Shown here: piece after piece, positions 1-52,205 of the stretch
How the letters are laid out: each line of letters starts with the position of its first letter
Position numbering within the stretch: position 1 is the first letter of the stretch
NCBI GenBank assembly: GCA_021735165.1
Contig: JAIPHP010000001.1
Location: 23,510-87,509, forward strand
Reading direction: 5' to 3'
From: Candidatus Woesearchaeota archaeon
GTDB lineage: Archaea; Nanobdellota; Nanobdellia; Woesearchaeales; 21-14-0-10-32-9
DNA: 64,000 nt
Translations under genes and position numbers: made by a program
The notes under the pieces: model-generated
Databases searched by the model: none
The model's input: only the letters and a program-made list of their open reading frames with translations
Told to the model about the DNA's origin: nothing

Positions 1-67
1 CTGCGGACTAAATTCTTTAATAAATACAACAACAGTATATGAAAGTCAAGAACACACAGAAAAATTC

Positions 68-1906: not shown

Positions 1907-1911
1907 AAAAA

Positions 1912-3393
1912 ATGGAATCCCCAATAAGAAAAAAACTACTAGACAAATACACAACAACCATAAACAACATAAACATACAAATAGAAATAATAAGCGAAGA
2001 AGAAAAAGCAGTACCAACATACATAGTAAGCATAACAAACATATCAGAAACAACAAAACTAATACTAGAAAAAATAAGAGAAGAATTCATATCAAAACTA
2101 GATTTACAAGAACTAGAACAATCAAACACAAACTCAAACGAACCAACACTAAGAGATAAATTCTCAAAATCAATAGGAAAACTAATACAAAAATACTTCC
2201 CAGACACAGATCAAAAAACAAAAGAAATGCTAATAAACTACCTCCTAGAAGAAAACCTAGGACTAGGAAAAATAGATATCCTGTTAAAAGACCCACATTT
2301 AGAAGAAATAGTAATAAACAACCACACAGAACCAGTATGGGTATATCACAAAAAACACGGATGGCTTGAAACAAACATAAAAATAATGACTGAAGCAAGA
2401 ATAAGACACTACGCAACAATAATAGGCAGAGATGTAAACAAAGAAATAACAACACTAAACCCCCTAATGGATGCACACCTACTAAACGGAGACAGAGTAA
2501 ATGCAACACTAATACCAATAAGCACAAAAGGAAACACAATAACAATAAGAAAATTCGCAGAAGACCCATGGACAATAACCAAATTCATAAAAATGGGCAC
2601 AATAAGCATAGAAGCCGCATCCCTAATATGGTTAGGAATACAAAACGAATTAAGCATGCTCATAGCAGGAGGAACAGGATCTGGAAAAACAAGCATGCTA
2701 AACGTAGTAAGCAACTTTCTACCACCAAATCAAAGAATCATAAGCATAGAAGACACAAGAGAACTACAACTACCAAAAAACCTCCACTGGGTACCAATGG
2801 AAACAAGATTACCAAACCCTGAAGGAAAAGGCGGAGTAACAATGCTAGACCTACTAGTAAACAGCCTAAGAATGAGACCTGATAGGATAGTTGTTGGAGA
2901 AATAAGAAGAAAAGAAGAAGCACAAGTACTAATGGAAGCAATGCACACAGGACACTCAGTATATGCAACAATACACGCAAACAACGCAACAGAAACAATA
3001 ACAAGACTAACAAACCCACCAATAGAGATACCAAAACCAATGATCTCATCTCTATCAATGATTCTAGTACAAAACAGAAATAGACGAACAGGAAAAAGAA
3101 GAACACTGCAAATAGCAGAAATAACGCCCCAAGGAGACCCAAAAACAATATTGCAACTAAACGTAATGAAAGACAAACTAGAACAACATGAAGAACCAGA
3201 CACACTATACAAAACACTCTCACTATACACAGGAATGACAAAACAACAAATACAAGAAGACCTACTAAAAAAACAACAAATACTACGATGGATGATAAAC
3301 AACAACATAGAAAACATAGACCAAATAGGAAAAATAATGGCAAACTACTACCTAGGAAGACTTAAATACACCCAAAAACAAACAACAAAATGA
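1912..3393 (+). CDS. type II/IV secretion ATPase (VirB11/PilB/GspE/FlaI superfamily), archaeal type IV pilus assembly ATPase
   Basis: Walker A LIAGGTGSGKTS, Walker B-like VVGEIR, His-box region HTGHSVYATIHA, size about 490 aa; overlaps the next gene by ATGA. Confidence 0.9.
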   Translation: MESPIRKKLLDKYTTTINNINIQIEIISEEEKAVPTYIVSITNISETTKLILEKIREEFISKLDLQELEQSNTNSNEPTLRDKFSKSIGKLIQKYFPDTDQKTKEMLINYLLEENLGLGKIDILLKDPHLEEIVINNHTEPVWVYHKKHGWLETNIKIMTEARIRHYATIIGRDVNKEITTLNPLMDAHLLNGDRVNATLIPISTKGNTITIRKFAEDPWTITKFIKMGTISIEAASLIWLGIQNELSMLIAGGTGSGKTSMLNVVSNFLPPNQRIISIEDTRELQLPKNLHWVPMETRLPNPEGKGGVTMLDLLVNSLRMRPDRIVVGEIRRKEEAQVLMEAMHTGHSVYATIHANNATETITRLTNPPIEIPKPMISSLSMILVQNRNRRTGKRRTLQIAEITPQGDPKTILQLNVMKDKLEQHEEPDTLYKTLSLYTGMTKQQIQEDLLKKQQILRWMINNNIENIDQIGKIMANYYLGRLKYTQKQTTK

Positions 3394-4199
3394 GCTTAGC
3401 AGACATAATAGCATCAAAAAATCCGCATCTAAAAAAAGAATTAAAAGTTGCAAGAATAGAAAAAACACCTACAGAAATAGTTAAACAAAGCCTACAATTT
3501 GCAACATACACAACATTCGGATTCACATTCCTACTATTTCTATTCTTTCTAAAAGAAGGAACAGAACTAACATGGCTACTACTAATAGCCCCAATATTAT
3601 ACTACTTAATGTACAATTTCAACATGCTCAAAATAAAAAGCTCAATACTAAAAAGAAAAAAAGAAATTGACAAAGACGTATTATTCGCAGGAAGATACCT
3701 CCTAGTAAAACTAAACTCCGGACAACCCCTTATAAATGCTCTAATAGACGCATCAAAAAGTTATGGCGTAGCAAACAAATACTTTAAAGAAATAGTAAGA
3801 GAAATAGAACTTGGAAAACCCCTTGAAAACACACTAACAGAACAAGCAGAATACAGCCCATCAGAAAAATTCAGAAAAATACTCTTTCAAATAAGCAACG
3901 CACTAAAAATAGGAATAGACGTAACAGAATTCCTAGAAGCAACACTAGATGAAATAGCACAACAACAACTAATAGAAATAAACAGATACGGAAAAAAACT
4001 AAACTCCATAACACTATTTTATATGTTATTTGCAGTAGTAATGCCATCATTAGGAATCACAATAATAGTAATAGTATTAGGATTAGGAGGAAGCCCAATA
4101 GATAACAATTTTTTCGTAAGCTTACTATTCCTAATAACCTGCATCCAAATAATGTTCCTAGCAGTATACAAATCAATCAGACCAAACATAAACATATAA
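3390..4199 (+). CDS. TadC/FlaJ-like pilus platform membrane protein, N-terminal T2SS-F domain half
   Basis: T2SS-F-like soluble domain (SLLFAGRYLLVKLNSGQPLINALIDASKSY...) between TM helices; translationally coupled to the ATPase. Confidence 0.8.
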   Translation: MSLADIIASKNPHLKKELKVARIEKTPTEIVKQSLQFATYTTFGFTFLLFLFFLKEGTELTWLLLIAPILYYLMYNFNMLKIKSSILKRKKEIDKDVLFAGRYLLVKLNSGQPLINALIDASKSYGVANKYFKEIVREIELGKPLENTLTEQAEYSPSEKFRKILFQISNALKIGIDVTEFLEATLDEIAQQQLIEINRYGKKLNSITLFYMLFAVVMPSLGITIIVIVLGLGGSPIDNNFFVSLLFLITCIQIMFLAVYKSIRPNINI

Positions 4200-4298
4200 A
4201 AAAACGAAACAATTCGTACTGTCTCGCACAGTACTTAACATGCGTGCCAACCGAGCAAAACCAGTTGGACCAAACATAAACATATAAAAAAATGAAAC
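4180..4298. repeat. 31-bp near-perfect direct repeat (4180-4210 and 4268-4298, one mismatch) flanking a 57-bp GC-rich spacer with hairpin GTACTG-N7-CAGTAC (4216-4234)
   Basis: read directly; first copy supplies the stop of the upstream TadC half, and the single C-to-T difference in the second copy creates the ATG of the downstream half. Confidence 0.7.
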
Positions 4299-17197: not shown

Positions 17198-17719
17198 ATG
17201 AGCTTAAAACAAGATACAAAACAACTGTTCGTTGATTATTACAAAGCTTACGATCCGGAAAATGGAGAAGAAAAAGCAAACAAAATCATAAAACAAGGAA
17301 AAAACATCAGCGATGCAGTAAATCAAAAAGCTTTTGATATGATATTTACACCAACAGGATTCTTTGTTGGAGGTTATATTGCTCTAACCGTAGCTGCAAA
17401 CGCAATTTACATACCAATTCAAACAGGAATAGAACTTCTTCAAACAAGAGACGTAAAAACGATAAATGCAAAATTAACAGAACTCAAACACTTCAAAACA
17501 GGCAGAGTCGGAGACGTATACACAGGAGAATTCACAACAGAAAACGGTCAAAAAATAGTATTATACGATCAACCTCAATTCTTTGAAGGTAAACTCTGGG
17601 GAAACAACAAACTATCAAAACTAGAAGAAGGAAAAGAATACACAGTAAAAATTTCTAAGAACAATTATGCTGGAATTTTTGAAATGAATAATCTCTTAGA
17701 CGCAAAAAAAACAAATTAA
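17198..17719 (+). CDS. hypothetical protein
   Basis: ORF only. Confidence 0.4.
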   Translation: MSLKQDTKQLFVDYYKAYDPENGEEKANKIIKQGKNISDAVNQKAFDMIFTPTGFFVGGYIALTVAANAIYIPIQTGIELLQTRDVKTINAKLTELKHFKTGRVGDVYTGEFTTENGQKIVLYDQPQFFEGKLWGNNKLSKLEEGKEYTVKISKNNYAGIFEMNNLLDAKKTN

Positions 17720-17743
17720 ACCCCCTTTGCTAGCGCGCAATAA
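17719..17743 (+). repeat. 3'-end fragment of the PATE-like repeat family (AACCCCCTTTGCTAGCGCGCAATAA)
   Basis: matches the conserved 3' terminus of the elements at 20150, 26495 and 45897. Confidence 0.6.
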
Positions 17744-17991: not shown

Positions 17992-18765
17992 TTAATTCTT
18001 TTTTAATTTGTCTTTTTCAACTTTAAACTTAAAATGTAAGCTAAGTGTTTGCATAACTTCTTGAAAACTAACTTCTTCAACCAAGAGAGGAAGCATATCT
18101 TCATTCCAACGCTTATGCAAAGTCTTCGCTTTATTAAACATCTTCAAGATGCTAGGGTCATCACCAGACTCCTTGCATTTTTTCTTAACTAATTTCATGT
18201 TTATGGGTAGTTTATGTTTAATGATTTGATAAATATCATAATGATCTCTAGGTTTATTCCTACCAATTGCAGCAGCAACTTTTTCAGCAACCATCTCCTC
18301 GCGGTTCAGACAAGGGAAACTAAACTTGGGGATGTTTGGATAAAAATGTTTCATTTCTAACATTTCTGGTTTTAAAAATAATTTGCCTCTTGCATTAAGA
18401 TCGATAAAGATTTGATCATCCCCAAGAATTGATTTGTAAGGAACAACTAATCTGACAAACTTATCAACATCTTTATCTTGAGTAATTGTTCCGAATAATT
18501 TAGATTCAGCAATAATTTTCTCTACTTCTGTTCGAACTTCTTTCAAAGGTCGTTCAAGAGTAAAATCAATATCTTCACTAATACGAGCATGATCTAAAAG
18601 AGTCAACTGCAAAGCAGTACCTCCTTTAAAATAAATTCCGCTAATATCTTTCATTAAGTAAAGCAGGATTGTGATGTAGTAATCTTTGACCAATAGATCA
18701 TAGTCAAACCCAGTTTTAGCAATGATTTCAAGTAATTCATCTTTTCTTATTTCTTTGACATCCAT
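17992..18765 (-). CDS. AbiEii/DUF1814 nucleotidyltransferase toxin (type IV TA / abortive infection)
   Basis: GIYFKGGTALQLTLLDHARISEDIDF is the hallmark nucleotidyltransferase motif of the AbiEii family. Confidence 0.75.
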   Translation of the reverse strand: MDVKEIRKDELLEIIAKTGFDYDLLVKDYYITILLYLMKDISGIYFKGGTALQLTLLDHARISEDIDFTLERPLKEVRTEVEKIIAESKLFGTITQDKDVDKFVRLVVPYKSILGDDQIFIDLNARGKLFLKPEMLEMKHFYPNIPKFSFPCLNREEMVAEKVAAAIGRNKPRDHYDIYQIIKHKLPINMKLVKKKCKESGDDPSILKMFNKAKTLHKRWNEDMLPLLVEEVSFQEVMQTLSLHFKFKVEKDKLKKN

Positions 18766-19244
18766 TTTTCTGATTCAACCTTTTTTAGGATTATAAAAGA
18801 GTGTCCGTCAATCTTTTTTTTGACTCCTTTTTTTAGAGCTTCTGCTCTGATTCTGTGAAAGACATATCTTTTATTCATTATTTTTGTTTTCCCATATTTG
18901 TTTGGCGAATATATGTCTACTTGCATAGGGACTTGGTCTGTAAGTTTCCAGTATTTTGCGGCATACCAACCGCCGATATAGTAATCTTCTCCATTCATTA
19001 TTTCATCAGCGACTATTAGAGGATTATCTGTCCACACATTATGTCTTGCTTTTATGGGTACAAGGAAGTATTTATCTTTGTTTAGCTTAATAATCCGGAA
19101 ATTTTTTCTTTGGTTGTAAATAAAATCATATAGTTGTTTCTCATTATCAAAGTGATTTCTAATATCATCTTTTGTAAAATAATACTTCTCTTGAAATTCA
19201 AGGTCTGAAATGACCCTTACCGCTCGTTCTGAAAGTCTAACCAT
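18747..19244 (-). CDS. AbiEi-like antitoxin/transcriptional regulator
   Basis: small upstream partner overlapping the toxin by 19 bp, classic AbiEi-AbiEii arrangement; weak sequence evidence alone. Confidence 0.55.
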   Translation of the reverse strand: MVRLSERAVRVISDLEFQEKYYFTKDDIRNHFDNEKQLYDFIYNQRKNFRIIKLNKDKYFLVPIKARHNVWTDNPLIVADEIMNGEDYYIGGWYAAKYWKLTDQVPMQVDIYSPNKYGKTKIMNKRYVFHRIRAEALKKGVKKKIDGHSFIILKKVESEKWMSKK

Positions 19245-19280: not shown

Positions 19281-20249
19281 ATGAGGCAAATAATATTTAA
19301 ATATTGTGGTTTTAAAGCCCCGATGTATTTGCTTGCAGAGAATTTTCCTCATGGCACATGGTTTACTGCTAATTCTGAAGAACACTCAGGTTTTGGAGAA
19401 TTTCAAGGAAAAAAAGATTATTATGTCATTACAATTCATGGTGGAAAAGAAGGTATAGGAATTCTAAGTCCTGATGTTATTGCCAGAGCGTATAATACTG
19501 AAGGCGGAATTACACCAGTATACAAAGCCAATCTTTCAAAAGTATTTTCAAATAAAAATGTTATTGGAGATTTACTTCAAGGAGGATTGCCTGATGGTTC
19601 AACCATACAAACGTTTAGCTTTGATCAAATGGTTGCTAGAGAAACGCCTAAAGAATTTTCTAGATATGCAGTTGTAAGAACATTAGATCAAGCAAAGAAA
19701 ACCAATTCTTGCTACCAAAATATTGATGGTAATCTATTAAATAATGGCGGGGTGGCTATTGATTCGCAAGTTATTGCATATCTTGATGGTGTTGATGAAG
19801 CTACGAAATTTCTTGGAAACGTAAAAGCAAAATTTCCAAATGGAAAATTAGGTGTTTGGAACTCTTTTAATTCAGATAATTATGATCCTGATGTTGCTCA
19901 GGGCGTTGTGCTCTTCTTGGGCAACATTGGTAACGCTGGTCTCCTCAGCGGCAATCTTCTTAATGATTATGGTCGCTTTGTCGTGGTAAGCGACGAAGTC
20001 GCTAATGTTAGCGCTGAAGGCGCGAACGCGCACAAAAAAGAGAGTTTAGAAGGAAGAATAAGCTTCACTGAAGGAGATTCTTTTACTGTTGGCGGATTCA
20101 AGTATGAAATGCATAGCGGTATCTATTTAGCTTCACCAATACAAAATAATAAAAATCGCTGCTCCGAAGCTATCTCCACCCTGAAGGATGGAGTATTACG
20201 CTTCAGTCGCCTAGACGCGATTTTTAGATTGCTTGTTATCGCGACCTAA
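19281..20249 (+). CDS. hypothetical protein, locally GC-richer; last about 33 codons are encoded by an inserted repeat element
   Basis: ORF; C-terminal NRCSEAISTLKDGVLRFSRLDAIFRLLVIAT is translated from the PATE-like copy at 20150-20288. Confidence 0.4.
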   Translation: MRQIIFKYCGFKAPMYLLAENFPHGTWFTANSEEHSGFGEFQGKKDYYVITIHGGKEGIGILSPDVIARAYNTEGGITPVYKANLSKVFSNKNVIGDLLQGGLPDGSTIQTFSFDQMVARETPKEFSRYAVVRTLDQAKKTNSCYQNIDGNLLNNGGVAIDSQVIAYLDGVDEATKFLGNVKAKFPNGKLGVWNSFNSDNYDPDVAQGVVLFLGNIGNAGLLSGNLLNDYGRFVVVSDEVANVSAEGANAHKKESLEGRISFTEGDSFTVGGFKYEMHSGIYLASPIQNNKNRCSEAISTLKDGVLRFSRLDAIFRLLVIAT

Positions 20250-20288
20250 AGGTCGGGGTATTAAACCCCTCGCGCTAACGCGCAATAA
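20150..20288 (+). mobile_element. PATE/MITE-like non-autonomous element, 139-bp copy
   Basis: ends TAAAAATCGCTGCTCCGAAG... and ...CCCCTCGCGCTAACGCGCAATAA shared with copies at 26495 and 45897; inserted 3' of ATAA and ends in ATAA. Confidence 0.7.
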
Positions 20289-20411
20289 ATAATTTTTTAT
20301 ACTTCTTATTTTCTTGTATTTGTTGTCCCGGTTGCTTCATCGATCTGATGAAGTTAAATGAAGTAGCTTGGAACTACACGTCATTTCACTACGACGATTT
20401 AATCGTTATAA

Positions 20412-20425
20412 TGAAAATCGCTGCT
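20412..20425 (+). repeat. solo 5'-end fragment of the PATE-like element (TGAAAATCGCTGCT)
   Basis: matches the 5' terminus of the family, preceded by ATAA. Confidence 0.45.
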
Positions 20426-20429
20426 TATA

Positions 20430-21557
20430 TTATTCATAAATAAATTTGGTTAGATTATCAGAGGACTTCATCTCATATATTTTGCGTTTGAAAACATCTA
20501 ATTTTTTAGAAAACTTATCTTTATCATAAAAATTTTTCGAATAATGCTGATTAAATTCTGCAAGATGAACTATTGGTTCGAGCTCTAAAGGTTTTTTCAA
20601 AACAAATTCATAACCTATTCTTTCAGTTTTTTGCGTGCGATTATTCTGCAACTTTTTTATAAACTTTTTAATATTTTTATCTTCATTCTTAATAGAATAA
20701 ACTCCTCGTTCCATCACATTAAATTGCCCATTAGAGCCAAACAAATTTTCTAAACCAAGAATATATGGATACGAATAAAATTTCATTAAAGCTTTAAGTT
20801 CGTCATTATGAAAAATAGCTGCAAAATCATATTTTAATTTTTCATCATTAACAACACTTTCAATTATTGATTCATACACATTATAAGTACTACTGCACAC
20901 CCCGCCAGTTCTTATGCCGCCAGTCTTAAAAAAGTCATTAATTTTAAAATTTGAATAGTCAACATATTTATCAACTTCATCTTTCAATTTTTTAGGAAGC
21001 GAATCAAAATTAGGCATAGAACTTAATTCTGCTACAGAAATAACAAACCTATTCTTAAAAAATGGTTCTGTTAAAAAATACTCAGAAAAATAAGAATTCA
21101 ACTTTTCATGATTTTTCAGCATAGACAACCATTCACTTTTAGACCGTCGCCAATTTGAAAAAGCCACCTGTTTAAAATTCATCGGCAAAACTAAATCAAT
21201 ATGATTTAAAGATTCAGAAAAATAATCAACATAATAATCCTTAGACCAAGAACTGCCAAGATTCAAAAGATAAGACTCAAAATACGAATAATTTTTAGAA
21301 AAATAATCTTTTAACAAAGGCAAAATCAATGTCGCATCAAATTCACTAACAGAGTTATCCCTTAAAATTCTAAAATGTCTACCTTTAGAACTTTCTATAT
21401 TTTCTGCCAAAGACTTAAAATGATCTAACCAACCTAACTTTTCAGGAAAATATTTTTTTAACAAATTCTCTGTACAATTAAAACTAACAGTATCCGTATC
21501 TTTTTCAGCAACATCTTTTAACAAATCCTTTGCACAATCAACACTACCAACAACCAT
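20430..21557 (-). CDS. hypothetical protein
   Basis: ORF only. Confidence 0.4.
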   Translation of the reverse strand: MVVGSVDCAKDLLKDVAEKDTDTVSFNCTENLLKKYFPEKLGWLDHFKSLAENIESSKGRHFRILRDNSVSEFDATLILPLLKDYFSKNYSYFESYLLNLGSSWSKDYYVDYFSESLNHIDLVLPMNFKQVAFSNWRRSKSEWLSMLKNHEKLNSYFSEYFLTEPFFKNRFVISVAELSSMPNFDSLPKKLKDEVDKYVDYSNFKINDFFKTGGIRTGGVCSSTYNVYESIIESVVNDEKLKYDFAAIFHNDELKALMKFYSYPYILGLENLFGSNGQFNVMERGVYSIKNEDKNIKKFIKKLQNNRTQKTERIGYEFVLKKPLELEPIVHLAEFNQHYSKNFYDKDKFSKKLDVFKRKIYEMKSSDNLTKFIYE

Positions 21558-21682
21558 ATCACTAAGTAATAGTGATTTATTTTAAAATGTATCTATGACA
21601 AAGCTAAAAAAACAATTTATTTACAATATAGACACTAAATAACAAGTAGTTTTAAAAAGCAACAACAATTACTTATAAATAA

Positions 21683-22099
21683 ATGCTAAACTTGCTGAAA
21701 CAAAAAACCAAAGTAATACTAGACACAAACTTCCTACTACTACCAGGCGAATTCGGAGTAGACATATTTACAGAAATAAAACGCATATCAACTGAACCAA
21801 TAGAAATATGCATTTTAGACAAAACAATGCAAGAATTAAAACTCATGATAGAAACTAAAGGCCAAAAAAAAGAAGGATTCAATGCAAAACTAGGATATAT
21901 AATGACAAAACAAAAAAACTTAAAAACACTCACAAGTTCCAAACATAACTACGCAGATGATGCTCTAGTAGAAATAGTGTCAAAAAACCCAAAAAAAACA
22001 ATAATAGCAACACAAGACAAAGAACTACAAAAAAGAATTCAAAATAAAAAAGGAAGAATAATAACACTTAAACAAAATAAATATCTCCAACTGAGGTGA
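21683..22099 (+). CDS. PIN-domain protein upstream of rpoE'
   Basis: VILDTNFLL start typical of PIN domains; conserved archaeal position before rpoE'. Confidence 0.55.
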   Translation: MLNLLKQKTKVILDTNFLLLPGEFGVDIFTEIKRISTEPIEICILDKTMQELKLMIETKGQKKEGFNAKLGYIMTKQKNLKTLTSSKHNYADDALVEIVSKNPKKTIIATQDKELQKRIQNKKGRIITLKQNKYLQLR

Positions 22100-22103
22100 A
22101 CTG

Positions 22104-22661
22104 ATGTTTTACAAAGTAAAAGTTAAAGACTATATAAGAATACCACCAGAAAAATTCGAAGAAGAACTAGAAACCGCAATGATACAACAAATAAAAACAA
22201 AATACGAAGGACACATATCCCAAGAACTAGGATCTGTAATAGACGTATCAGGAATCGGAGATATCAAAGACGGAGTAATAATACCCGGAGACGGAGCAAC
22301 ATTTTACGAAACAGAATTTGAACTATTAACATTCATACCCGAAATGCAAGAAGTAGTTCCTGGAATAATAAAAGACATAGCAGACTTTGGAGCATTCATA
22401 ACAATGGGCCCAACAGAAGGAATGATACACATAAGCCAAACAATGAATGACTACGTAAGCTTCAGCAAAGACAAAGCACTACTAGGAAAAGAATCCAAAA
22501 AAACACTAAAAGTAAACGACAAATGCAGAGCAAGAATCATATCAATATCATACAAAGACCTATCAAATCCAAAAATAGGATTGACAATGAGACAAGATGG
22601 GCTAGGCAAAGAAGAATGGATAGAACCAGACTTAGATAAAACAAAGACAAAAAAGAAATAG
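22104..22661 (+). CDS. rpoE: DNA-directed RNA polymerase subunit E' (Rpo7)
   Basis: N-terminal Rpo7 fold sequence plus S1-like domain (ADFGAFITMGPTEGMIHISQ). Confidence 0.85.
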   Translation: MFYKVKVKDYIRIPPEKFEEELETAMIQQIKTKYEGHISQELGSVIDVSGIGDIKDGVIIPGDGATFYETEFELLTFIPEMQEVVPGIIKDIADFGAFITMGPTEGMIHISQTMNDYVSFSKDKALLGKESKKTLKVNDKCRARIISISYKDLSNPKIGLTMRQDGLGKEEWIEPDLDKTKTKKK

Positions 22662-22671
22662 GTAGATAAAA

Positions 22672-22866
22672 ATGGGCGTAAAACGAGAAGTATGCAAAAA
22701 AACAAAAAAATTCATGGACGATCCAAAATTTAAAGAACACAAAGCAATATCAGGCACAACGACAAACTGGCAAGGAAGAATATATGTAGTAACCCCGGGA
22801 AAATCAGATATTGCTAAAATAATGGGCTTTGAAGAACAAGGAGAATACGCAATAAAAGTAAGATAA
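22672..22866 (+). CDS. spt4: Spt4 / RNA polymerase subunit E''-like protein lacking the four zinc-ribbon cysteines
   Basis: C-terminal SDIAKIMGFEEQGEYAIKVR resembles the Spt4 NGN-binding region; only one Cys present. Confidence 0.55.
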   Translation: MGVKREVCKKTKKFMDDPKFKEHKAISGTTTNWQGRIYVVTPGKSDIAKIMGFEEQGEYAIKVR

Positions 22867-22877
22867 ACCGAAAAAAA

Positions 22878-23231
22878 GTGATAAAAATGGAACTAAAACA
22901 AATACAAGAAACCAAATCAGCATTACCAAGAAAAGAACTAAAATATGAACTAAAATACAACGAAACAACACCAAGCCGAAAACAACTACAACAAAGCATA
23001 TCTACAAAACAAAAATCAAAACCAGAATTAACAATAATAAAAAAAATAATGCCTACATACGGAGAAAAAACAGCAGAAGTAACCGCACTAATATATGAAA
23101 ACGAAGAAGCAATGAAAGCAATAGAATACCCAAAAGTAATAGAAAAAAACATACCAAAAAAAGAAGAAGCAAAAGACAACGAACAAAAATCAGACTCACA
23201 ACCCACAGAAAAAAAGGAAGGTGAACAATAA
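22878..23231 (+). CDS. rps24e: 30S ribosomal protein S24e with K/E-rich C-terminal extension
   Basis: [20 protein letters not shown] matches the S24e core EIKFEVKHEGATPSRKE. Confidence 0.7.
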
Positions 23232-23434
23232 TGGCAGCAGCAAAAGGCGGAAAAGCACCAGCTAAAAAAACCGAAGCAAAACCTAAAAAGAAAAAAAGAA
23301 AACCAATCCACGAAACTTATGAAAACGGAAAATCAAAAAACAAAACCTGTCCTAAATGCGGGCCAGGAGTATTTTTAGCATCACACAAAGACAGAGCAAC
23401 ATGCGGCAAATGCGGATACATGGAAAAGAAATAA
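23231..23434 (+). CDS. rps27ae: 30S ribosomal protein S27ae
   Basis: CPKCG...CGKCG zinc ribbon after Lys-rich N-terminus. Confidence 0.85.
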
Positions 23435-23478
23435 TAACTCAATCCTTAATATCAAACTAACAAAAGCAAATAAAAAAA

Positions 23479-23904
23479 TTATTTATCTCCAAGAACCTTA
23501 CCAATATTAAATTTTACTTCTTTGGCAGCCAGATTTGCTCTAATCAAATAAGGCGCATCTTCATCTGTTAGTTGTTTTGCTCCACCAACGATTGTGAAGT
23601 TAGCGTCAACCCATTTATGCGGATTATTTCTAATTTGAGAAGAATCATACCTAATAACATATTGAGTTCCCCTAAAACTACTAGTGCCTTTTTCATTATA
23701 AGATATTATATCTGTCTTTCCATTATTATCCACATCCCATAATTGATAAGGTTTATCATTAAAAATGACAGTTTCAGGATTTTCTTTCATCAAATAATTA
23801 GGCTCATTTGATTTAGTGCACGCAATAAATACCAAAGGCAAAGCAGCCTTCTTATAGTGTCTCTTTGTAAAGCTCCAAGCTTTGTCAACAATATTCTTTA
23901 ACAT
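23479..23904 (-). CDS. hypothetical lipoprotein/secreted protein
   Basis: N-terminal hydrophobic segment with LVFIAC lipobox-like motif. Confidence 0.4.
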   Translation of the reverse strand: MLKNIVDKAWSFTKRHYKKAALPLVFIACTKSNEPNYLMKENPETVIFNDKPYQLWDVDNNGKTDIISYNEKGTSSFRGTQYVIRYDSSQIRNNPHKWVDANFTIVGGAKQLTDEDAPYLIRANLAAKEVKFNIGKVLGDK

Positions 23905-23925
23905 GTTATTACCTCGTAAATTACA

Positions 23926-24831
23926 TCATTTATTTAATGAAACATAAGTAGCTTTGCTTCCTTTAACTAACATTTCATATTTTTTTGCCAGATTTTTTGT
24001 TCTATCAACAATGCTTTTGCCAATCAAACTAAGACTGCTATACTGTGGCTCTAAAGCTTTAACAACACTGCCAACATCTGCTGCGAGAGATCCGTTCTTA
24101 TTTTTTGTATAAGGAACAAAATTTATTCTTTCCTCCGACCAATCTCTAGATTTGCTTTCTCTAAGAAAGTCTTTCTCTTTAGGATTTTTATCGATGCTGA
24201 TGTTAAGATACGTTTCCAGTTGTTTTTCTCGTTTGTTATCAATAATATATTTTTGCTGAATTGTATCTGTAGTCACAGATTTATTTTCTTCAAATCTTCC
24301 TATAGATGAGTCATTTGTAACTTTAAACTCAATTTCTTTATTAAATGCAGTCTTACTAGCTCTAATAATATCATTTGACATATTTATTATTTTTTTGTTA
24401 TAACTTGAAGACTTTGTAATATTTATTACTTTATCCATGACTGCTTGAGCAGTATATAAAAATTGAACTTTATCTTTTGAATCAGGATCAAAAGAAATTT
24501 CATTAAGTTGTTCTTGAGATAATTCTTCGGTTTTATACATAGAAAATGAATTTTCTGGTAATGATTGGTAATTCATATGACTTATAAGATCAACTATTTC
24601 ATTTTCATAGTTTTCAAGATGAAATTGAGGATTTTGAGTAGCTAAATCAGATACATCAAATTTAACTGTTGTTCTTTCATCGGACGTTTCATCCAAATAA
24701 TTATATCTTTTAAGATTAATATCTGATGAATCTTCTTTTGAACCAGTTAATATTCTATTAAGTATAAAACCAGGCCCAAAAAATGCTGCTGTTGATATTG
24801 CTTCTCTACCAAATTTATCGAATTTTGACAT
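23926..24831 (-). CDS. hypothetical protein
   Basis: ORF only. Confidence 0.4.
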   Translation of the reverse strand: MSKFDKFGREAISTAAFFGPGFILNRILTGSKEDSSDINLKRYNYLDETSDERTTVKFDVSDLATQNPQFHLENYENEIVDLISHMNYQSLPENSFSMYKTEELSQEQLNEISFDPDSKDKVQFLYTAQAVMDKVINITKSSSYNKKIINMSNDIIRASKTAFNKEIEFKVTNDSSIGRFEENKSVTTDTIQQKYIIDNKREKQLETYLNISIDKNPKEKDFLRESKSRDWSEERINFVPYTKNKNGSLAADVGSVVKALEPQYSSLSLIGKSIVDRTKNLAKKYEMLVKGSKATYVSLNK

Positions 24832-24988
24832 TTAAACATCACCTTTTTTTAAAATTATAAATTACATATATTAACTAATATATAAAGCTTTCGTTTTATT
24901 GTCATTTCATAGTGGTAAATAATTATTTGGGTGTGATTTAAAATCATAATCCAAATAATTAATAAATAAAAACAAAATATCACAATAA

Positions 24989-25486
24989 ATGAAAGTCTAC
25001 ACAAAAGTTGGAGATAAAGGAACAACAAGAACATATTCAGGAAAAGAAATACCTAAAGACGACCCAATCATAATAATTGGAGGAAAAATAGACACCCTAC
25101 AGGCAAGTCTTGATTATGCAAAAATAGTTCTTTCAGATACAGAAATCATAGAAATTATTGAAGATGTTCAAAAGAAACTATGGCAAAGCGCAGGAGAAAT
25201 CAGCCAGGAAGGAACAGAAAAACTCAAAGAACCAATAACAGAAGAAAACATAACAACTCTAGAGCAGAACATAGATAAATACAACCAAAAAATAGACTTC
25301 TTCATCAGGTTCTCAAAAGAATCTTCCTGTAGATTAAACGAAGCAAGAATAAGAACAAGAGAACTCGAAATAACAATGACACAAAAGCATCTAGAAGGAA
25401 AGATACGTTCAGAAGTCTACAAATACATAAACCGGCTTTCTGACCTAATCTACGTCTTAGCTTGCAAAGAAGAGAAACAACAATAA
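24989..25486 (+). CDS. PduO-type ATP:cob(I)alamin adenosyltransferase family protein
   Basis: N-terminal MKVYTKVGDKGTT is the family signature; about 165 aa. Confidence 0.7.
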   Translation: MKVYTKVGDKGTTRTYSGKEIPKDDPIIIIGGKIDTLQASLDYAKIVLSDTEIIEIIEDVQKKLWQSAGEISQEGTEKLKEPITEENITTLEQNIDKYNQKIDFFIRFSKESSCRLNEARIRTRELEITMTQKHLEGKIRSEVYKYINRLSDLIYVLACKEEKQQ

Positions 25487-25488
25487 AT

Positions 25489-26337
25489 TCATTTCTTAGT
25501 TATTATAGGTTTTAATGCAACAGAATACTCTTTCGATTTCCCCGGCTGAATAGTCGTATACTCTCCCTGAATAAATGGCTCTCTTCCCTTTCTTCTTGGA
25601 TTATGAGTTATTGGCTCCATACAAAAACTTCCATATTCAGGACCTCTGCTCCAAAGCGCCATATTATCAAACCCTTTTGTATTCATAACAAGATGTATTC
25701 CTTTCTTATCATTAGAATAAACAACTTCATCAACACCTTCAAAAATAGGATGCTCTTTGGTCTTAGAAAGTTCTATAACATCCTTTAGACTTACCACATC
25801 TTTTCCCCCTATATCGAATTTGCCATCATCAACAGAGCCATGAATGTTAAACCAAGGATGCCAACCATACTCTAATTTCATATCCTGATTTGCAATATTT
25901 CTAATTTTAAAATCAGTTTTAAGAATATTTTCTTCAATATTAAATGACTTTAAATGAATAAAATTATATGGAAGAGATATGAATTCAGGAGCTGCCTTAG
26001 GATTATTAGGATCAAATTTATCATTTTTTACAGGAGAATCAGGAAAGTATATCTGTGTAAACTCATTTTCAGTTTCTGTTTTTCTCCACGGCAGACTTCT
26101 ACTTATTCCGTGTTTTTCCCCAACGTACACTTCTTTATTTTCAAATTTTATATTCTTAGCAGCCTTACCTATAACAGGAAACATGCTGAATTCAGAATAT
26201 TTATCCCAATTTTCAGGTCTCTGAGATTTAGGAACTGTTCTTAATTTATAACCAGGATATATAAATTCATTTCCAGACTTTCTAAGTCCCGTCATAATGC
26301 CATCAATTACCTCAATTTGAAGATCATTATTTTTCAT
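25489..26337 (-). CDS. aldose 1-epimerase (galactose mutarotase-like) family protein
   Basis: EYGWHPWFN motif and size. Confidence 0.5.
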   Translation of the reverse strand: MKNNDLQIEVIDGIMTGLRKSGNEFIYPGYKLRTVPKSQRPENWDKYSEFSMFPVIGKAAKNIKFENKEVYVGEKHGISRSLPWRKTETENEFTQIYFPDSPVKNDKFDPNNPKAAPEFISLPYNFIHLKSFNIEENILKTDFKIRNIANQDMKLEYGWHPWFNIHGSVDDGKFDIGGKDVVSLKDVIELSKTKEHPIFEGVDEVVYSNDKKGIHLVMNTKGFDNMALWSRGPEYGSFCMEPITHNPRRKGREPFIQGEYTTIQPGKSKEYSVALKPIITKK

Positions 26338-26494
26338 TAAAAAAGAAAATAAGACCTCCTTTATATATTTTTTTACTTGAAAGTAATAAAATATAAGAAG
26401 TGTTTTTCTTTAAACAATAACAAATAATCAAAAAATAACTTCTTCATACGCTTTACATAAGAAACCAGTGCAAGACTCAACGAAGCAAGAATAA

Positions 26495-26785
26495 TGAAAA
26501 TCGCTGCTCCGAGTCTGCTAAGAAACCAAAAATTTCTTGCACACAGAAATCAAAAAAAATTTCTTCGTGTATCTCCGCCCTAAATGCACAGAAACAAAGA
26601 TTCTGACACGACAAAAATCAAAGATTTTTGTGCAGGACGGAGTATTACGACTCAGTCGCTTATCGCGATTCACAAAAAACACAACAGCATTTCTGTGCGC
26701 TATAAACCAAATGTTTATACGCGCTCAGATTGCGTGCCATCGACCTAAAGGCCGGCATTAAACCCCTTCCGCTAGCGCGCAATAA
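26495..26785 (+). mobile_element. PATE/MITE-like non-autonomous element, longest (291-bp) copy with internal hairpins
   Basis: 5' TGAAAATCGCTGCTCCGAGTCTGCTAAGAAAC, 3' AAACCCCTTCCGCTAGCGCGCAATAA; internal palindromes such as GCGCTATAAAC...GTTTATACGCGC; inserted exactly 3' of AGAATAA inside a duplicated fragment of the PduO-like gene. Confidence 0.75.
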
Positions 26786-26900
26786 GAACAAGAGAATTCG
26801 AAATAGCACTAGCATCAATGTTTCGAGAAAACAAGCTCATCAGAAGTATACAAATACATAACCGATTATCAGACTTAATCTACGTTTTAGCGCGCAATAA
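26786..26900 (+). pseudogene. degenerate duplicate of the 3' end of the PduO-like gene (compare 25352-25470), ending in another PATE 3'-end fragment (26889-26900)
   Basis: about 80% nucleotide identity to 25352-25470 by eye; the matching left flank 26479-26494 equals 25336-25351. Confidence 0.55.
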
Positions 26901-35939: not shown

Positions 35940-36078
35940 AAGGCGTGTCCCAAATCTTTCTTTTTCTTATTGCAAAGTATTGTTAGCTGCTTCGCAGTCT
36001 AAGTTTCACTAAGAAACACAGATCTTTAACGTGTTCCGCGTTGTGTTTCTCTCAATTGAGCTTTAGAGCAATACAGAT
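35940..36078 (+). repeat. left copy of an approximately 140-bp inverted repeat pair
   Basis: reverse complement matches 40897-41037 with a 70-bp perfect core (AAAGTATTGTTAGCTGCTTCGCAGTCTAAGTTTCACTAAGAAACACAGATCTTTAACGTGTTCC). Confidence 0.85.
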
Positions 36079-36143
36079 GTTAGTGACACGCTCCACAAAA
36101 AAAAACAAATAACACACAAAAAACAACGTCATAAACAAAAAAC

Positions 36144-37991: not shown

Positions 37992-39557
37992 TTATGCATC
38001 AACTAAATTACCTTTTCTAGCCCAAAACACTAACAAAAAATAAATCGGAATGCAAAATACCAAAACTCCAACACCAATAATCCTAAAAAAATCCAAATAT
38101 CCAACTCTTGAACCCATAAAAAAAAGAACGGATGTCAAAACAAAAAAAGGAATTAAAATAATAAGACTTGAAAAAGAATAAAATAATTTCCTATCAAAAG
38201 AATTCAGATATCTAGACGCCAGTAAACTATTACCCCCACCAAGCATACTAGCTCCAAAAATACTAAATAAATTAGCTAAAACCAAAGCAGGCAAAAAACT
38301 ATTCATAGATAAGGCTAACGGAAAAAAAGAAACAAGAACAGAGCCAAACACCAACAAAGGAGACAAACCAAGATACTTATTAAACCTAGAAGCAATTATC
38401 GGCCCGAAAATAGAAAACACTAAAGGAATACCAAAAACAAAAACAAGATTCATAAATTTGCCCAAAAAAATAGGCTCAAATTCCGAATAAATATAAACTC
38501 CTGCCAAACTATAAGTTGCTGACTGAAAAACCGCCAAGAACAAAGTAGCAAGACCTAACATCAAAAGATGTTTATTATATAAAAACCTCTTACCTTTTCT
38601 AAAAACAGATTCGATAAAATAAGTCTTAAATTCAAAAAAAGATAATTTCTTAGTAAAATTTCTAAACTTCATCCTAGAAAGCCAATAAGAAGACAAAATA
38701 AAAACAATAGTTGTTAACTCAAAAGCAATCAAAAAACCATGCAAACGAAAACTAAAATCAAAACCAAAAACACTCAAACTAAATAAAACCCCTGACAAAG
38801 GAACCAAATCCATCAAAACCGCACTACCTAAAAAACCAAAAAACATCAATAAAACACCAAAAAACGCAGTAGTAGGAGACACCAACACACTAAAACCCTT
38901 ACTAGAACTCTCTCTAAACGTCCTGAATAAATCACCATAAATAACAACACCTACAGAACCAACTAAAAAACTAACTGCGAAAAGCCAAATAGAACCAAGA
39001 GAAACCGCCAACGCAATAAACAAAAAACTAAACCCAAAAACCAAACCACTAAAATTAATAAACCACACTCTAAAATTAGCTTTATCATAATACTCTCTAA
39101 AAAAAGTGGAAAAAAAAGTGGTGATGCAAGTCCTTAAAACATTCAAAAACCCAATCAAAAAAAAACCTGCACCCGTTAAATAAAACAAAACACTTAAAAC
39201 CTGATTAGACGCCAAACCAAATCCAAACCTATCTAAAAAATACTTTTTCTTAGACAAACTATCATTAGAAACGAAATCATTATGATCTGCATACTCCCGG
39301 GCAATACTTTTCATAGCAACAACTATATCCGACTCAGCATACCCCGCTTTCAAAAGTTTCCTATTAACATCAGAAATGGACAAACCACTCCTCAAATAAG
39401 ATTCAATATCTTTTAACAACTCACCCATAAATAACCCAAAAACAAAATACAAAACCACGTTTTTAAAGTTTTCGAAGTAAAAACATAAAAACAATACAAA
39501 AAGTATTAAAAACCCACAAAAAAGGAACAAAACATAAAAACCAAAAAAAGAATCCAA
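37992..39557 (-). CDS. polytopic membrane protein, possible MFS-type transporter with soluble N-terminal domain
   Basis: more than 10 predicted TM helices. Confidence 0.45.
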   Translation of the reverse strand: MDSFFGFYVLFLFCGFLILFVLFLCFYFENFKNVVLYFVFGLFMGELLKDIESYLRSGLSISDVNRKLLKAGYAESDIVVAMKSIAREYADHNDFVSNDSLSKKKYFLDRFGFGLASNQVLSVLFYLTGAGFFLIGFLNVLRTCITTFFSTFFREYYDKANFRVWFINFSGLVFGFSFLFIALAVSLGSIWLFAVSFLVGSVGVVIYGDLFRTFRESSSKGFSVLVSPTTAFFGVLLMFFGFLGSAVLMDLVPLSGVLFSLSVFGFDFSFRLHGFLIAFELTTIVFILSSYWLSRMKFRNFTKKLSFFEFKTYFIESVFRKGKRFLYNKHLLMLGLATLFLAVFQSATYSLAGVYIYSEFEPIFLGKFMNLVFVFGIPLVFSIFGPIIASRFNKYLGLSPLLVFGSVLVSFFPLALSMNSFLPALVLANLFSIFGASMLGGGNSLLASRYLNSFDRKLFYSFSSLIILIPFFVLTSVLFFMGSRVGYLDFFRIIGVGVLVFCIPIYFLLVFWARKGNLVDA

Positions 39558-39561
39558 AAAA

Positions 39562-40725
39562 ATGCCAAAAAAACTAATACTAACAAAAATATTTGAAATG
39601 AATATACATCAAACAATAACTACCGAACCACAAATAATAACAAAAAACAAAGAAAACTACGTACTAATACCTACTGAAAACGGAGAATTACTAAGCATAG
39701 ACAAAAAAGGAAACCTAAATTGGAAATTTGATACAAAAGAAGAAACAAATGAAATAGAAAAACTTTTCGTAGATACAAAAACAGGGCATGGTATAAACAG
39801 CAAACCTTTGTTAACAACAACAAATGACAAAACTAACATAATCTTTGGAAATGAAAACGGAACAGTATATTCTCTAACAGACAACGGAGAGCTAAATTGG
39901 ACATATAAAACAGAGAGTGCAATAAGAAGCTCCCCAACATACAAAGATAAAAAAATAGTAATAGGAAGCACAGACAAATACATCTACATTCTAGATGAAC
40001 AAGGAAAACTCATAGCAAAATACATAACATCAGAAAAAATAGAAGCATCACCAATACTCTTAAAAGATGAAATAATAATATGCACTAGCGAAGGAAACGT
40101 AATAAACCTGTCAAAAAATGGAACCACAAATTGGACATATAAAACAAAAAACAAAATAATAAGCAACCCCATAATATTTAATCAAAACCAAATAATTGTT
40201 TGCTCAACAGACAACAATGTATACTGTTTAGATTTAAAAGGAAACCTAAATTGGAAATTTGAAACTAAAGGATCTATATATGCAGAACCAGAAATAGGAG
40301 ACATAGACGAAGACAAATTAACTGAAATAATAATAGGAAGTACAGATAACAACACATACATATTAAGTGATAAAGGAATAGAAAAATGGAATTTCGCAAC
40401 AAACTTTTGGGTTGTGGCACAACCAAAAATATTTGAAATAGATCAAAAAAAATACTTAGCAATACCCTCATACGACGGAAATATATATATAATAAATGGA
40501 ACTGGAGAATACAATTACGAATACATACCAGGAATATCAGGAATAGTAATGCAGGAATCAAACTTTTCAGAAATACCAACAAAAGACCCTGGAAAAATAC
40601 AAGGAAAAATACTCTATAAAGAAAACACAGGAGATTTAATCACAGGAATAACAATAAAAAACAAATACTTAGCAGCAACCACAAAAAAAGGGAAAGTAAT
40701 ACTCTACGAAATCAAAAAAACATAA
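39562..40725 (+). CDS. PQQ-like beta-propeller repeat protein
   Basis: repeated NGxLNW(T/K)(Y/F)xT blades (GNLNWKFDTK, GELNWTYKTE, GTTNWTYKTK, GNLNWKFETK). Confidence 0.6.
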   Translation: MPKKLILTKIFEMNIHQTITTEPQIITKNKENYVLIPTENGELLSIDKKGNLNWKFDTKEETNEIEKLFVDTKTGHGINSKPLLTTTNDKTNIIFGNENGTVYSLTDNGELNWTYKTESAIRSSPTYKDKKIVIGSTDKYIYILDEQGKLIAKYITSEKIEASPILLKDEIIICTSEGNVINLSKNGTTNWTYKTKNKIISNPIIFNQNQIIVCSTDNNVYCLDLKGNLNWKFETKGSIYAEPEIGDIDEDKLTEIIIGSTDNNTYILSDKGIEKWNFATNFWVVAQPKIFEIDQKKYLAIPSYDGNIYIINGTGEYNYEYIPGISGIVMQESNFSEIPTKDPGKIQGKILYKENTGDLITGITIKNKYLAATTKKGKVILYEIKKT

Positions 40726-40896
40726 ACTCCTGATTGTTTTCAAGACTAAATTCTGCATACGAAAGCCAGAAAAATCCATCTTTTAAAATGGAGATAAATT
40801 GTTTCAACAAACTTTTATTGCATTAAATAGCTTTTAATAAAATCAATAACACACTTTAGTTATTTTACTTATTAAAAGTTAGGGTTTGTTCCAAAT

Positions 40897-41037
40897 ATCT
40901 GTATTACCCTAGAGCTCAATTAAGAGAAACACGAAGTGGAACACGTTAAAGATCTGTGTTTCTTAGTGAAACTTAGACTGCGAAGCAGCTAACAATACTT
41001 TGTAATACGAAAAAGAAAGACCTAAGGACACACCTTA
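40897..41037 (-). repeat. right copy of the inverted repeat pair (inverse of 35940-36078)
   Basis: see left copy. Confidence 0.85.
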
Positions 41038-45742: not shown

Positions 45743-45758
45743 TTATTGCGTGCTAGCG
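45743..45758 (-). repeat. inverted solo 3'-end fragment of the PATE-like element (TTATTGCGTGCTAGCG)
   Basis: reverse complement CGCTAGCACGCAATAA is one mismatch from the family 3' end. Confidence 0.45.
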
Positions 45759-45896
45759 TAAGAGATTTAATACAAATAAATACTTTGCATTTATTGTACA
45801 CAAAAGCTTTGCTTTCTTTACATTTAGATTGAGGATTGACTCACATTTTCTTTATTTATAGCTAATATTTTTTCATAAATTCAATCTTTTTTATAA

Positions 45897-45955
45897 TGAA
45901 AATCCCTGCTCCGAGTCTGCTAAGAAACTAGACCCCTTCCGCTAGCGCGCAATAA
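45897..45955 (+). mobile_element. PATE/MITE-like element, minimal 59-bp copy (5' and 3' ends fused)
   Basis: TGAAAATCCCTGCTCCGAGTCTGCTAAGAAACTAGACCCCTTCCGCTAGCGCGCAATAA; preceded by ATAA. Confidence 0.7.
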
Positions 45956-51791: not shown

Positions 51792-52205
51792 ATGATAACC
51801 GAACGAGCACTAAGCCTTACCTGCCCAAATAAAAAATGTTCAAAATACAAAAAACACCTGCGAGGAAACATAATAAAATATGGAACACAAAAAAACGGTG
51901 TGCCTAGATACAAATGCTCAGAATGCAAAAAAACATTTACAAAAATAAATAATGTGCGAAAAAATATGAAAATATCAAGAGAAGAATTCATTCATATATG
52001 CAAGTTAATGGCTCAAAAAATGAGCTTTAGAAAAATAAGCCGAAAAACAGGCAAACACCTAGACACAATAAGAGGTGTAGCAAATAGGATTACAGAAAAC
52101 TACAGAAAAATGCGTGATTACTTCAAAGACGATTTAAAAATGGAAGAACAAGAAGTAGAAAGCATGTGGAGTCATATCAAAAAAAAGAAAAAAATCAAAG
52201 AATGA
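51792..52205 (+). CDS. zinc-ribbon plus HTH protein resembling IS1 InsA / transposase N-terminal domains
   Basis: CPNKKCSKY...CSECKK C4 ribbon followed by helix-turn-helix-like region (ISREEFIHICKLMAQKMSFRKISRKTG). Confidence 0.5.
   Translation: MITERALSLTCPNKKCSKYKKHLRGNIIKYGTQKNGVPRYKCSECKKTFTKINNVRKNMKISREEFIHICKLMAQKMSFRKISRKTGKHLDTIRGVANRITENYRKMRDYFKDDLKMEEQEVESMWSHIKKKKKIKE

Follow-up and report, generated by a model that had tools for sequence, protein, structure and literature searches.

The stretch of DNA analyzed here, referred to as the window, comprises 64,000 nucleotides (nt) of a Candidatus Woesearchaeota archaeon genome (GenBank assembly GCA_021735165.1, contig JAIPHP010000001.1, positions 23,510 to 87,509). 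Its G+C content is 26 to 36%. Among its genes are archaeal information-processing genes at 22.1 to 23.4 kb (RpoE'/Rpb7-like, Spt4, S24e, and S27ae) and others for type IV pilus-type ATPases, FtsZ, and a KaiC-like ATPase. The window also carries three full copies and several remnants of a short non-coding repeat, which an initial annotation had described from the letters alone as a PATE-like, non-autonomous derivative of IS200/IS605-type transposons that inserts 3' of ATAA. The element is mobile, as three independent empty sites show, and its 139-nt core has a two-domain fold that is strongly upheld by covariation. The copies and remnants in the window are the following.

20150 to 20288, plus strand: core copy (c139), 139 nt, with ATAA just before it at 20146 to 20149
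26495 to 26785, plus strand: 291-nt copy (c291), the 139-nt core with three inserted hairpin modules
45897 to 45955, plus strand: terminal-only derivative (c59), 59 nt, consisting of 32 nt of the 5' end and 27 nt of the 3' end
17715 to 17743, plus strand: 3'-terminal remnant ATTAAACCCCCTTTGCTAGCGCGCAATAA, 29 nt, overlapping the stop codon of the open reading frame (ORF) at 17198 to 17719
20408 to 20425, plus strand: 5' remnant, ATAA followed by TGAAAATCGCTGCT (14 element nt)
about 45743 to 45816, minus strand: degenerate 3' part of a deletion-variant copy, comprising a hairpin module and the 3' end

The coordinates of the three full copies were as originally annotated, and all three lie directly after ATAA and end in CAATAA, in keeping with the earlier observation that each copy follows ATAA and itself ends in ATAA. 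At up to 3 mismatches, the 15-nt 3' motif GCTAGCGCGCAATAA matched six times in the window (0.42 expected by chance), and the 19-nt 5' motif matched three times (0.00 expected). The c139 copy scored 160 bits against the covariance model of the family described below. Of the solo ends originally proposed, the 5' end at 20412 to 20425 proved real and, together with its ATAA, occupies 20408 to 20425. Two 3' ends were also real but had been given different extents: the one placed at 17719 to 17743 begins at 17715 and is preceded by ACAA, not ATAA, and the inverted one placed at 45743 to 45758 reaches to about 45816. The 29-nt form of the former recurs in two related loci (L161 and L144), there after ATAA, and the latter shares 85 to 89% identity with L052 and L078, which are copies in another genome. 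Five of the six copies or remnants in the window are on the plus strand; GC skew in the window is dominated by coding bias. A Logan contig from SRR12088349, an independent short-read assembly, corresponds exactly to window positions 20260 to 26516 and thus stops inside c139 and c291, as would be expected of a dispersed genomic repeat.

The first empty site lies in the window itself and is defined by the two flanks of c291.

26430 to 26494, plus strand: left flank of c291, a pseudogene fragment homologous to 24989 to 25486 that ends in the target ...GCAAGAATAA
26786 to 26900, plus strand: right flank of c291, in which the same pseudogene fragment continues

When joined, these flanks align contiguously with the intact paralog at 24989 to 25486, and the junction reads GCAAGAATAA|GAACAAGAG in both. 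The fragment, split by c291, represents the last ~60 codons of the PduO-type Cob_adeno_trans gene at 24989 to 25486 and lies on the same strand, 1 kb downstream of the intact gene. Another solo 3' end had been annotated within its right part, at 26889 to 26900. That segment (AGCGCGCAATAA) corresponds to ...TTAGCTTGCAA... of the intact Cob_adeno_trans gene and encodes ...YVLARNN, and 11 of 13 bases in the region also align with the intact paralog. It is therefore most simply read as coding sequence of the pseudogene fragment and provides no independent evidence of an element; a remnant fused to the gene by microhomology, via the shared TAGC, is a conceivable alternative.

At the second empty site, a 139-nt copy in locus L137 (also recovered as L162 to L164) interrupts a small HEPN-like gene. 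Exact removal of this copy in silico gave back an ORF of 147 residues, whose alignment with a homolog in L143 spans the junction (E = 2e-19). Given the adjoining minimal nucleotidyltransferase (MNT) gene, the interrupted gene probably supplies the HEPN component in a toxin-antitoxin pair. The third empty site was found by comparing two contigs that are 98% identical: L147 is filled (...GCGCAATAA|AGGCAATATT...), whereas L144 is empty (...TTTTAAGTATAA|AGGCAATATT...), with an empty junction of ...GTATAA|AGGCAATATT. This pair, which supplies the comparison with strains lacking an insertion that was proposed when the element was first annotated, is a strain-level presence/absence polymorphism. ATAA was present at the junction in all three empty sites, once in each, and all three are seamless when ATAA is counted as the end of the element.

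Copies favored the 3' sides of genes, and five begin exactly at a TAA stop codon. This preference can be explained by the TAA contained in the target together with selection against hits in promoters and coding sequence. In the window, c139 sits in the last codons of the ORF at 19281 to 20249 and appends ~32 element-encoded codons to it; without c139, the natural end would read ...IQNK*. A long upstream ORF had the same orientation as the copy in 15 cases and not in 3, and no orientation bias of the copies relative to transcription was seen. An outward promoter, suggested by a TATTAAA box in the 3' end, was considered and rejected given that the downstream genes mostly face the wrong way. The interval separating the 29-nt remnant from c139 contains an AbiEii-type nucleotidyltransferase toxin gene preceded by a partner ORF (17992 to 19244, minus strand); with the interrupted gene of L137, this suggests that toxin-antitoxin loci tolerate insertions.

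The clustering at gene 3' ends and exact placement at stop codons, together with the conserved structure described below, would also be expected of an immobile regulatory or terminator RNA motif conserved at the ends of genes. We regard this as extremely improbable, and the empty-site data refute it: copies interrupt coding sequence, and strains that are 98% identical differ in whether they carry a copy. Furthermore, contexts are non-homologous across genomes, assemblies break at the copies, and no run of T follows the element.

Copies beyond the window were sought in genomes and metagenomes. A scan of species-representative genomes used a 15-nt pattern and returned mostly chance matches; among the matches listed, at least four true copies were found on four contigs of a Woesearchaeota metagenome-assembled genome (JAIPET01). 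Their flanks share nothing with the window, so these insertions are non-orthologous, and the conservation at orthologous positions that would have spoken for a regulatory motif was not seen. A more specific pattern applied to JGI metagenomes yielded 40 stretches, of which 38 were real and nearly all derived from Ga0114931 and Ga0114934. A covariance model built from seven copies of 137 to 140 nt gave 39 matches in 225 kb (the window plus related loci). Combining the model with fuzzy searches for the ends, we counted 31 two-ended copies across three data sets, ranging from 55 to 291 nt in length. IMG/VR scans for both ends gave zero matches. When the peptide tails encoded by the element were compared with a set of 5.8 billion proteins, a single cluster was recovered, that of the interrupted HEPN-like gene, from which the family seems to be rare in public data. 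Many copies are located at contig ends, which indicates that the element breaks assemblies.

ATAA, which occupies 1.4% of plus-strand positions in the window, immediately precedes 30 of the 31 two-ended copies, extending to all three data sets the association first noted in the window. The 3' end is CAATAA in every two-ended copy except that in L157 (...CAATAT). Ahead of the left ATAA, the base may be A, T, or G, and ahead of the right ATAA it is always A; since position -5 varies on the left only, a target duplication longer than 4 bp is excluded. In L140 and L156, elements are arranged in tandem, with the 5' part of the second beginning directly after the first CAATAA. Bridge-RNA targeting of the IS110 type was rejected on finding that flank conservation is limited to ATAA, as was a bulge-helix-bulge intron, in which case the flanks vary and cannot pair and the splice-site helix is absent.

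As originally annotated, the element has no terminal inverted repeats. The 5' end (TGAAAATCGCTGCTC) and the reverse complement of the 3' end (TGCGCGTTAGCGCTT) share only the outer TG, or 2 of 15 bases, and subfamily 2 copies begin with AA. These ends bear on whether the element moves by a double-strand mechanism, that is, by a transposase that duplicates a fixed 4-bp ATAA or by a site-specific recombinase with an ATAA crossover core acting via a circular intermediate. Either would leave ATAA on both sides of each copy and once in each empty site, as observed, and subfamily 1 would then begin with TG and end with CA. We nevertheless consider such a mechanism improbable: inverted termini are lacking, subfamily 2 departs from the TG start, the internal repeats are direct rather than inverted, and the A and T of the 3' ATAA lie in a conserved, covarying stem. 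In addition, no DDE transposase or recombinase gene was found nearby in Pfam scans of the window ORFs examined. A DDE-type MITE was rejected separately, with inverted termini absent and a duplication conceivable only as ATAA.

The 139-nt core folded alike with RNA and DNA parameters (z = -6.1 and -5.0, respectively). In the predicted fold, domain 1 is closed by pairing of bases 2 to 10 with 68 to 76 and holds a second stem and a hairpin, and domain 2 is closed by pairing of bases 79 to 89 with 127 to 137 and holds two hairpins. The element's first bases (through one closing stem) and its last bases (through the other) are thereby paired with adjacent mid-element bases on the continuous strand GCGATTTTC-AG-ATTGCG. 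Because the partners of the two ends are neighbors in the middle of the element, both junctions would be brought side by side. The two halves of the core are homologous (bases 16 to 70 versus 83 to 133; 0 to 2 of 500 shuffles aligned as well), and each contains one hairpin unit of the form TATC-stem-T(A/G)AA-stem-GTATTA, both in direct orientation.

20171 to 20198, plus strand: hairpin unit 1 of c139, core nt 22 to 49, TATC-TCCACCC-TGAA-GGATGGA-GTATTA
20237 to 20263, plus strand: hairpin unit 2 of c139, core nt 88 to 114, TATC-GCGACC-TAAA-GGTCGGG-GTATTA

Unit 1 has a bulged T near its foot, and its helix (helix 3) is 95.8% paired. The left ATAA lies 25 nt ahead of unit 1 and the right ATAA ~29 nt beyond unit 2, and the two units are candidate left and right subterminal imperfect palindromes. 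Folding the ends for subterminal hairpins had been proposed with the initial annotation and yielded this pair of similar, directly oriented units within the core. The key palindromes are others than those named at that stage, of which GCGCTATAAAC/GTTTATACGCGC forms part of an optional module and CGCTAGCG supplies the 3' strand in a long-range stem. A tRNA-like character of domain 2 was rejected, its mascRNA match being at noise level only.

Covariation was assessed on a model-based alignment of the 39 matches, which leans toward the structure of the model; a MAFFT alignment of all copies was set aside, having misplaced the 5' segment in module-bearing copies. Standard pairs made up 91.4% of cells, compared with 34 to 48% when the partners were slid by 1 to 3 columns. 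Two-sided changes occurred in 38 of 46 pairs, and none of 500 shuffles reached any of five measures. Compensated variants of the terminal stem are also visible in the raw sequences (GAAAATCGC/GCGATTTTC, GAAAATCCC/GGGATTTTC, AAAAATTGC/GCAATTTTT, and, in L052, GAAAACGTGAAT/ATTCACGTTTTC). G:T and A:C combinations were about equally frequent (67 versus 54), and the sequence therefore singles out neither the folded strand nor an RNA or DNA form.

Given this covariation, which extends across all seven helices and includes stems with no IS608 counterpart, the selected unit might instead be an RNA: a guide RNA of the omega RNA type, or another structured or circularizing RNA, spread by an RNA-guided nuclease or an RNA-level process. 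One U:G pair is retained in 24 of 35 copies, and the fold stops 2 nt short of the right boundary, where the guide of a TnpB would start. It is reported that PATEs often encode omega RNAs that are used in trans (PMC10055086), and archaeal omega RNAs have circular isoforms (PMC12558985), which can be compared, purely as a lead, with the two ends of this element being held together. Several results make an RNA origin of the selection distinctly unlikely in our view. Rfam 15 gave no match in the window at the gathering score and only noise for c291 and c139 at E values up to 10, neither a TnpB nor an IscB gene occurs in the sequences at hand, and no internal archaeal promoter was identified. Moreover, the DNA fold is equally good, an excess of G:U over A:C is not clear, and variants that are terminal-only or lack unit 2 are common despite having lost the fold. 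A more far-reaching pair of proposals is that the core, more than a pair of hairpins for a transposase to bind, is a self-contained omega-RNA-like guide module, perhaps circularized through its joined ends, which a TnpB/IscB-type nuclease uses in trans in DPANN archaea, or else that these reduced genomes carry the elements without any Y1 transposase, which would imply an unrecognized mobilizing activity; we think this unlikely.

The copies were originally thought to differ from one another by internal deletion. This holds for c59, a deletion derivative, but c291 consists of the core with three modules inserted at 26516 to 26569, 26585 to 26634, and about 26671 to 26723. The second of these is nested in a hairpin of the host element.

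26585 to 26634, plus strand: nested module in c291, 50 nt, bounded by terminal inverted repeats (TGCACAGAAA...TTTTTGTGCA) and placed within the TAAA loop of unit 1

Across the family, hairpin modules are of three kinds, each found at fixed places in the element. One kind, 50 to 57 nt long with ~10-nt inverted termini (TGCACAGAAAC... or TGCTCAGAAAC...), always follows a TAAA or TGAA loop (that of unit 1 in 3 copies, that of unit 2 in 9 copies) and is predicted to stack on the host hairpin as an extension. Among the sequences examined, in which no systematic search was made, the modules were seen only within the host element. Deletions account for the short forms. In the type represented by L153, everything between the two GTATTA repeats is missing. 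Terminal-only forms of 29 to 59 nt (c59, L160 at 584 to 638, L149, L144, L161, and window 17715 to 17743) retain between a few and 32 bases at the 5' end together with ~27 to 36 bases at the 3' end. In c59, the hairpin units are absent and the fold is unstable (z = +0.9), and this copy is probably immobile. As judged from the aligned copies, the variant sizes come from the insertion of modules into loops and from deletion between internal repeats.

The numerous 3'-only remnants that start at or near GTATTA recall rolling-circle (IS91-like, HUH Y2) or one-ended transposition, in which the conserved 3' end would serve as terminator or origin; a tetranucleotide target without inverted repeats or duplication would suit such elements too. 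Most remnants, however, retain ATAA and 1 to 5 nt of the true 5' end (L144, L149, L127, and L160), so that internal deletion fits them better than 5' truncation does. With two homologous hairpin units that suit a dimeric Y1 enzyme, and with no Rep-like gene found, we hold rolling-circle movement to be very unlikely.

The explanation that we favor, and consider moderately likely, is that the family is of the PATE kind: non-autonomous elements moved as single-stranded DNA by a HUH (Y1) transposase of the IS200/IS605 type acting in trans. According to this model, the two hairpins would be the left and right imperfect palindromes, bound on the top strand by a TnpA dimer, and ATAA would serve both as target and left cleavage site and as right cleavage site. 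Immediately 5' of each hairpin, YTAT may act as a DNA guide that pairs with ATAA. The element would be excised as a single-strand circle carrying the junction ...GCGCGCAATAA|TGAAAATCGC... and pasted 3' of another ATAA, often that of a TAA stop codon. New copies could insert immediately behind existing ones, because the element carries its target at its own end. The element may additionally serve as a guide-RNA scaffold for a TnpB-like nuclease. The tetranucleotides that precede or overlap the feet of the hairpins are CTAT on the left and TTAT, CTAT, or CCAT on the right; 2 to 4 of their 4 positions are complementary to ATAA, and the cleavage sites are invariant. The two presumed guides being nearly alike, identical left and right cleavage motifs would be expected under the IS608 model, which is an argument from consistency.

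The PATE assignment in the initial annotation is partly borne out: the sequence hallmarks that could be checked are all present or compatible, but the link to an element encoding TnpA or TnpB was not found, and an ATAA duplication would look identical. A number of observations weigh against this explanation. In the consensus fold, the putative guide bases are predicted to pair, and the distance between the hairpin and the right cleavage site is ~29 nt, compared with 10 nt in IS608. The ATAA at the end of the element means that a 4-bp ATAA target duplication would yield the same sequences. The long-range stems and extensive covariation exceed the requirements of the IS608 model and might be due to a function as RNA, and the pair counts given above favor neither strand. 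The L153-type variant, without unit 2, was found in three data sets, which is awkward if both hairpins are needed unless the deletion is recurrent. As previously noted for TnpA and TnpB, neither a Y1 TnpA nor a TnpB was found by Pfam scans of the window ORFs examined, which detected only housekeeping, toxin-antitoxin, and regulator genes. Screens for a HUH...Y motif and a TnpB-like C-terminal zinc ribbon, which are heuristics only, were negative for 370 ORFs in ~225 kb. No both-ended copy longer than 291 nt was found when pairs of ends more than 400 nt apart were sought in the window and related loci. An all-against-all comparison of ORFs showed no transposase among the recurrent proteins of the loci, only Fic, TrmB, and host genes. 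A TnpA/TnpB-encoding element with the same ends, the search for which had been suggested at the outset, was found neither in the window, nor in the ~225 kb that includes the related loci, nor in IMG/VR; complete genomes were not searched.

One ORF in the window deserves mention beside these screens. At 51792 to 52205 (plus strand), it encodes 137 amino acids with a CxxC...CxxC zinc ribbon and a helix-turn-helix-like region and resembles the N-terminal part of some transposases. It had no Pfam match at E values up to 0.001, and there is no long ORF in 52206 to 52420, before the following tRNA gene. The latter is a tRNA-Gln(UUG) gene at 52423 to 52571 (plus strand) with a 76-nt intron after position 38; it was detected by ARAGORN with long introns allowed and was missed by default ARAGORN and by Rfam at the gathering score. 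Within the intron, the 33 nt at 52456 to 52488 are 88% reverse-complementary to 4241 to 4273, which sits in a 64-nt insert between perfect 25-nt direct repeats (GACCAAACATAAACATATAAAAAAA; 4180 to 4204 and 4269 to 4293).

Other repeats were also observed. A 134-nt inverted repeat, 90% complementary, occupies intergenic positions 35955 to 36088 and 40887 to 41020, on either side of a 4.8-kb block that contains four ORFs. When folded together with its flanks, one copy is moderately stable (z = -2.65), and Rfam gave no match. The repeat might represent a small RNA gene present in duplicate or mark the boundaries of a mobile or invertible segment. A second repeat family of ~90 nt (TAGTCAACGACAAAAG...TTATTCGTTGGCTATATTGAGAG...) is absent from the window and present in metagenome contigs L130 (1716 to 1810), L152, L149, L146, and L161; it also occurs beside the ATAA element in L144 and L158, and several times it borders immediately on the element's 3' end. 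The window region 54398 to 61830 is a cluster of paralogous TrmB-like regulator and Fic/DOC genes with an AAA_14/DUF4143 ATPase and contains repeated intergenic segments, D4 (57387 to 57563 and 60904 to 61080; 81%) and D20. At 1 to 4000 and 38000 to 40000, A exceeds T very strongly on the plus strand (AT skew of 0.45 to 0.55), and these regions contain ORFs rich in lysine, glutamine, and asparagine as well as A-rich low-complexity repeats.

DPANN archaea have tiny genomes usually thought to be poor in mobile DNA, and to our knowledge such elements have not been described in this lineage. The family, which may represent mobile DNA of the single-strand-transposon type in these organisms, appears to have been recently active, as suggested by the strain polymorphism and the gene disruption. 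It accounts for assembly breaks in short-read metagenomes of these organisms, and its copies provide precise markers of strain-level variation. Its most interesting aspect is the fully covarying two-domain fold predicted to juxtapose the ends, and the small, heavily covarying core offers a compact natural case of end juxtaposition by folding. If an RNA-guided partner exists, the core would also point to an unusually short guide scaffold.

Several known systems invite comparison. REP/BIME sequences are short structured intergenic repeats thought to be moved by a single-gene HUH Y1 enzyme (RAYT, a domesticated Y1 transposase). REPs are single palindromes of ~20 to 40 nt that carry a conserved 5' GTAG and usually occur as inverted pairs. 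The present family resembles them in being short, structured, and possibly moved by a HUH Y1 enzyme encoded elsewhere; it was not assigned to them, since GTAG is absent, the core of 139 nt has two direct units, the target is ATAA, and genes are disrupted.

In IS608, subterminal imperfect palindromes on the top strand are bound by TnpA, and cleavage occurs on the left 3' of a tetranucleotide located 19 nt 5' of the left hairpin, outside the element, and on the right 3' of a tetranucleotide located 10 nt 3' of the right hairpin, inside the element (PMC3201880). Four-nucleotide guides 5' of the hairpin feet locate both cleavage sites, and insertion, which takes place 3' of the target, neither adds nor removes DNA (PMC3201880). 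Our family shares with IS608 and ISDra2 (IS200/IS605 elements with a Y1 HUH TnpA) the insertion 3' of a specific tetranucleotide, the asymmetric ends, imperfect subterminal palindromes with a bulged T on one strand, a left cleavage site ~20 nt 5' of the hairpin, and a short motif 5' of each hairpin that could pair with the cleavage site. It differs in having no tnpA or tnpB, in having the same left and right cleavage tetranucleotide, in the greater distance from the right hairpin to its site (~29 nt rather than 10 nt), and in the extra long-range stems that unite the ends.

The PATE-like minimal elements of Geobacillus stearothermophilus IS605 elements are reported to often encode omega RNAs that need TnpB in trans (PMC10055086). 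They, too, are gene-less copies sharing their left and right ends with a family, with a transposon-adjacent motif beside them and a transposon-encoded motif at their end, and the same layout is seen here. In contrast, a TnpB partner and an Rfam match were not found for our family.

The closest parallels are found in the PATEs of haloarchaea, which have similar palindromes near both termini (an exact 22-bp direct repeat in HqIRS46) and give rise to terminal-only versions of ~52 bp when the core is lost through repeat-mediated deletion (PMC3119063). Like the PATEs of Haloquadratum walsbyi (e.g., HqIRS46; PMC3119063), the elements described here are non-coding and too short for a transposase (55 to 291 nt), lack terminal inverted repeats, show no visible target duplication (an ATAA duplication would look identical here), and have a 4- to 5-nt targeting sequence 5' of the element. 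The two groups also share a pair of similar near-terminal palindromes that form a direct repeat, core deletion between repeats to terminal-only forms of ~50 nt, and small inverted-repeat elements within the palindromes. Unlike the Haloquadratum elements, ours reside in an AT-rich DPANN host and have a much smaller core (139 nt), two homologous, stem-closed, covarying domains, and a target identical to the right-end motif (ATAA). Furthermore, haloarchaeal PATEs share their ends with annotated IS1341-type elements, whereas for this family no sequence link to an IS605-type transposon was found. In haloarchaea, small inverted-repeat elements named SMR-A insert, without target duplication, preferentially in the palindromes near the termini of PATEs and IS605-type elements (PMC3119063). 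The 50- to 57-nt modules, with their ~10-nt inverted termini and placement in hairpin loops, behave like SMR-A; they are about half its size, unrelated in sequence, and extend the host hairpin as a further helix, repeating the SMR-A phenomenon in an unrelated archaeal lineage.

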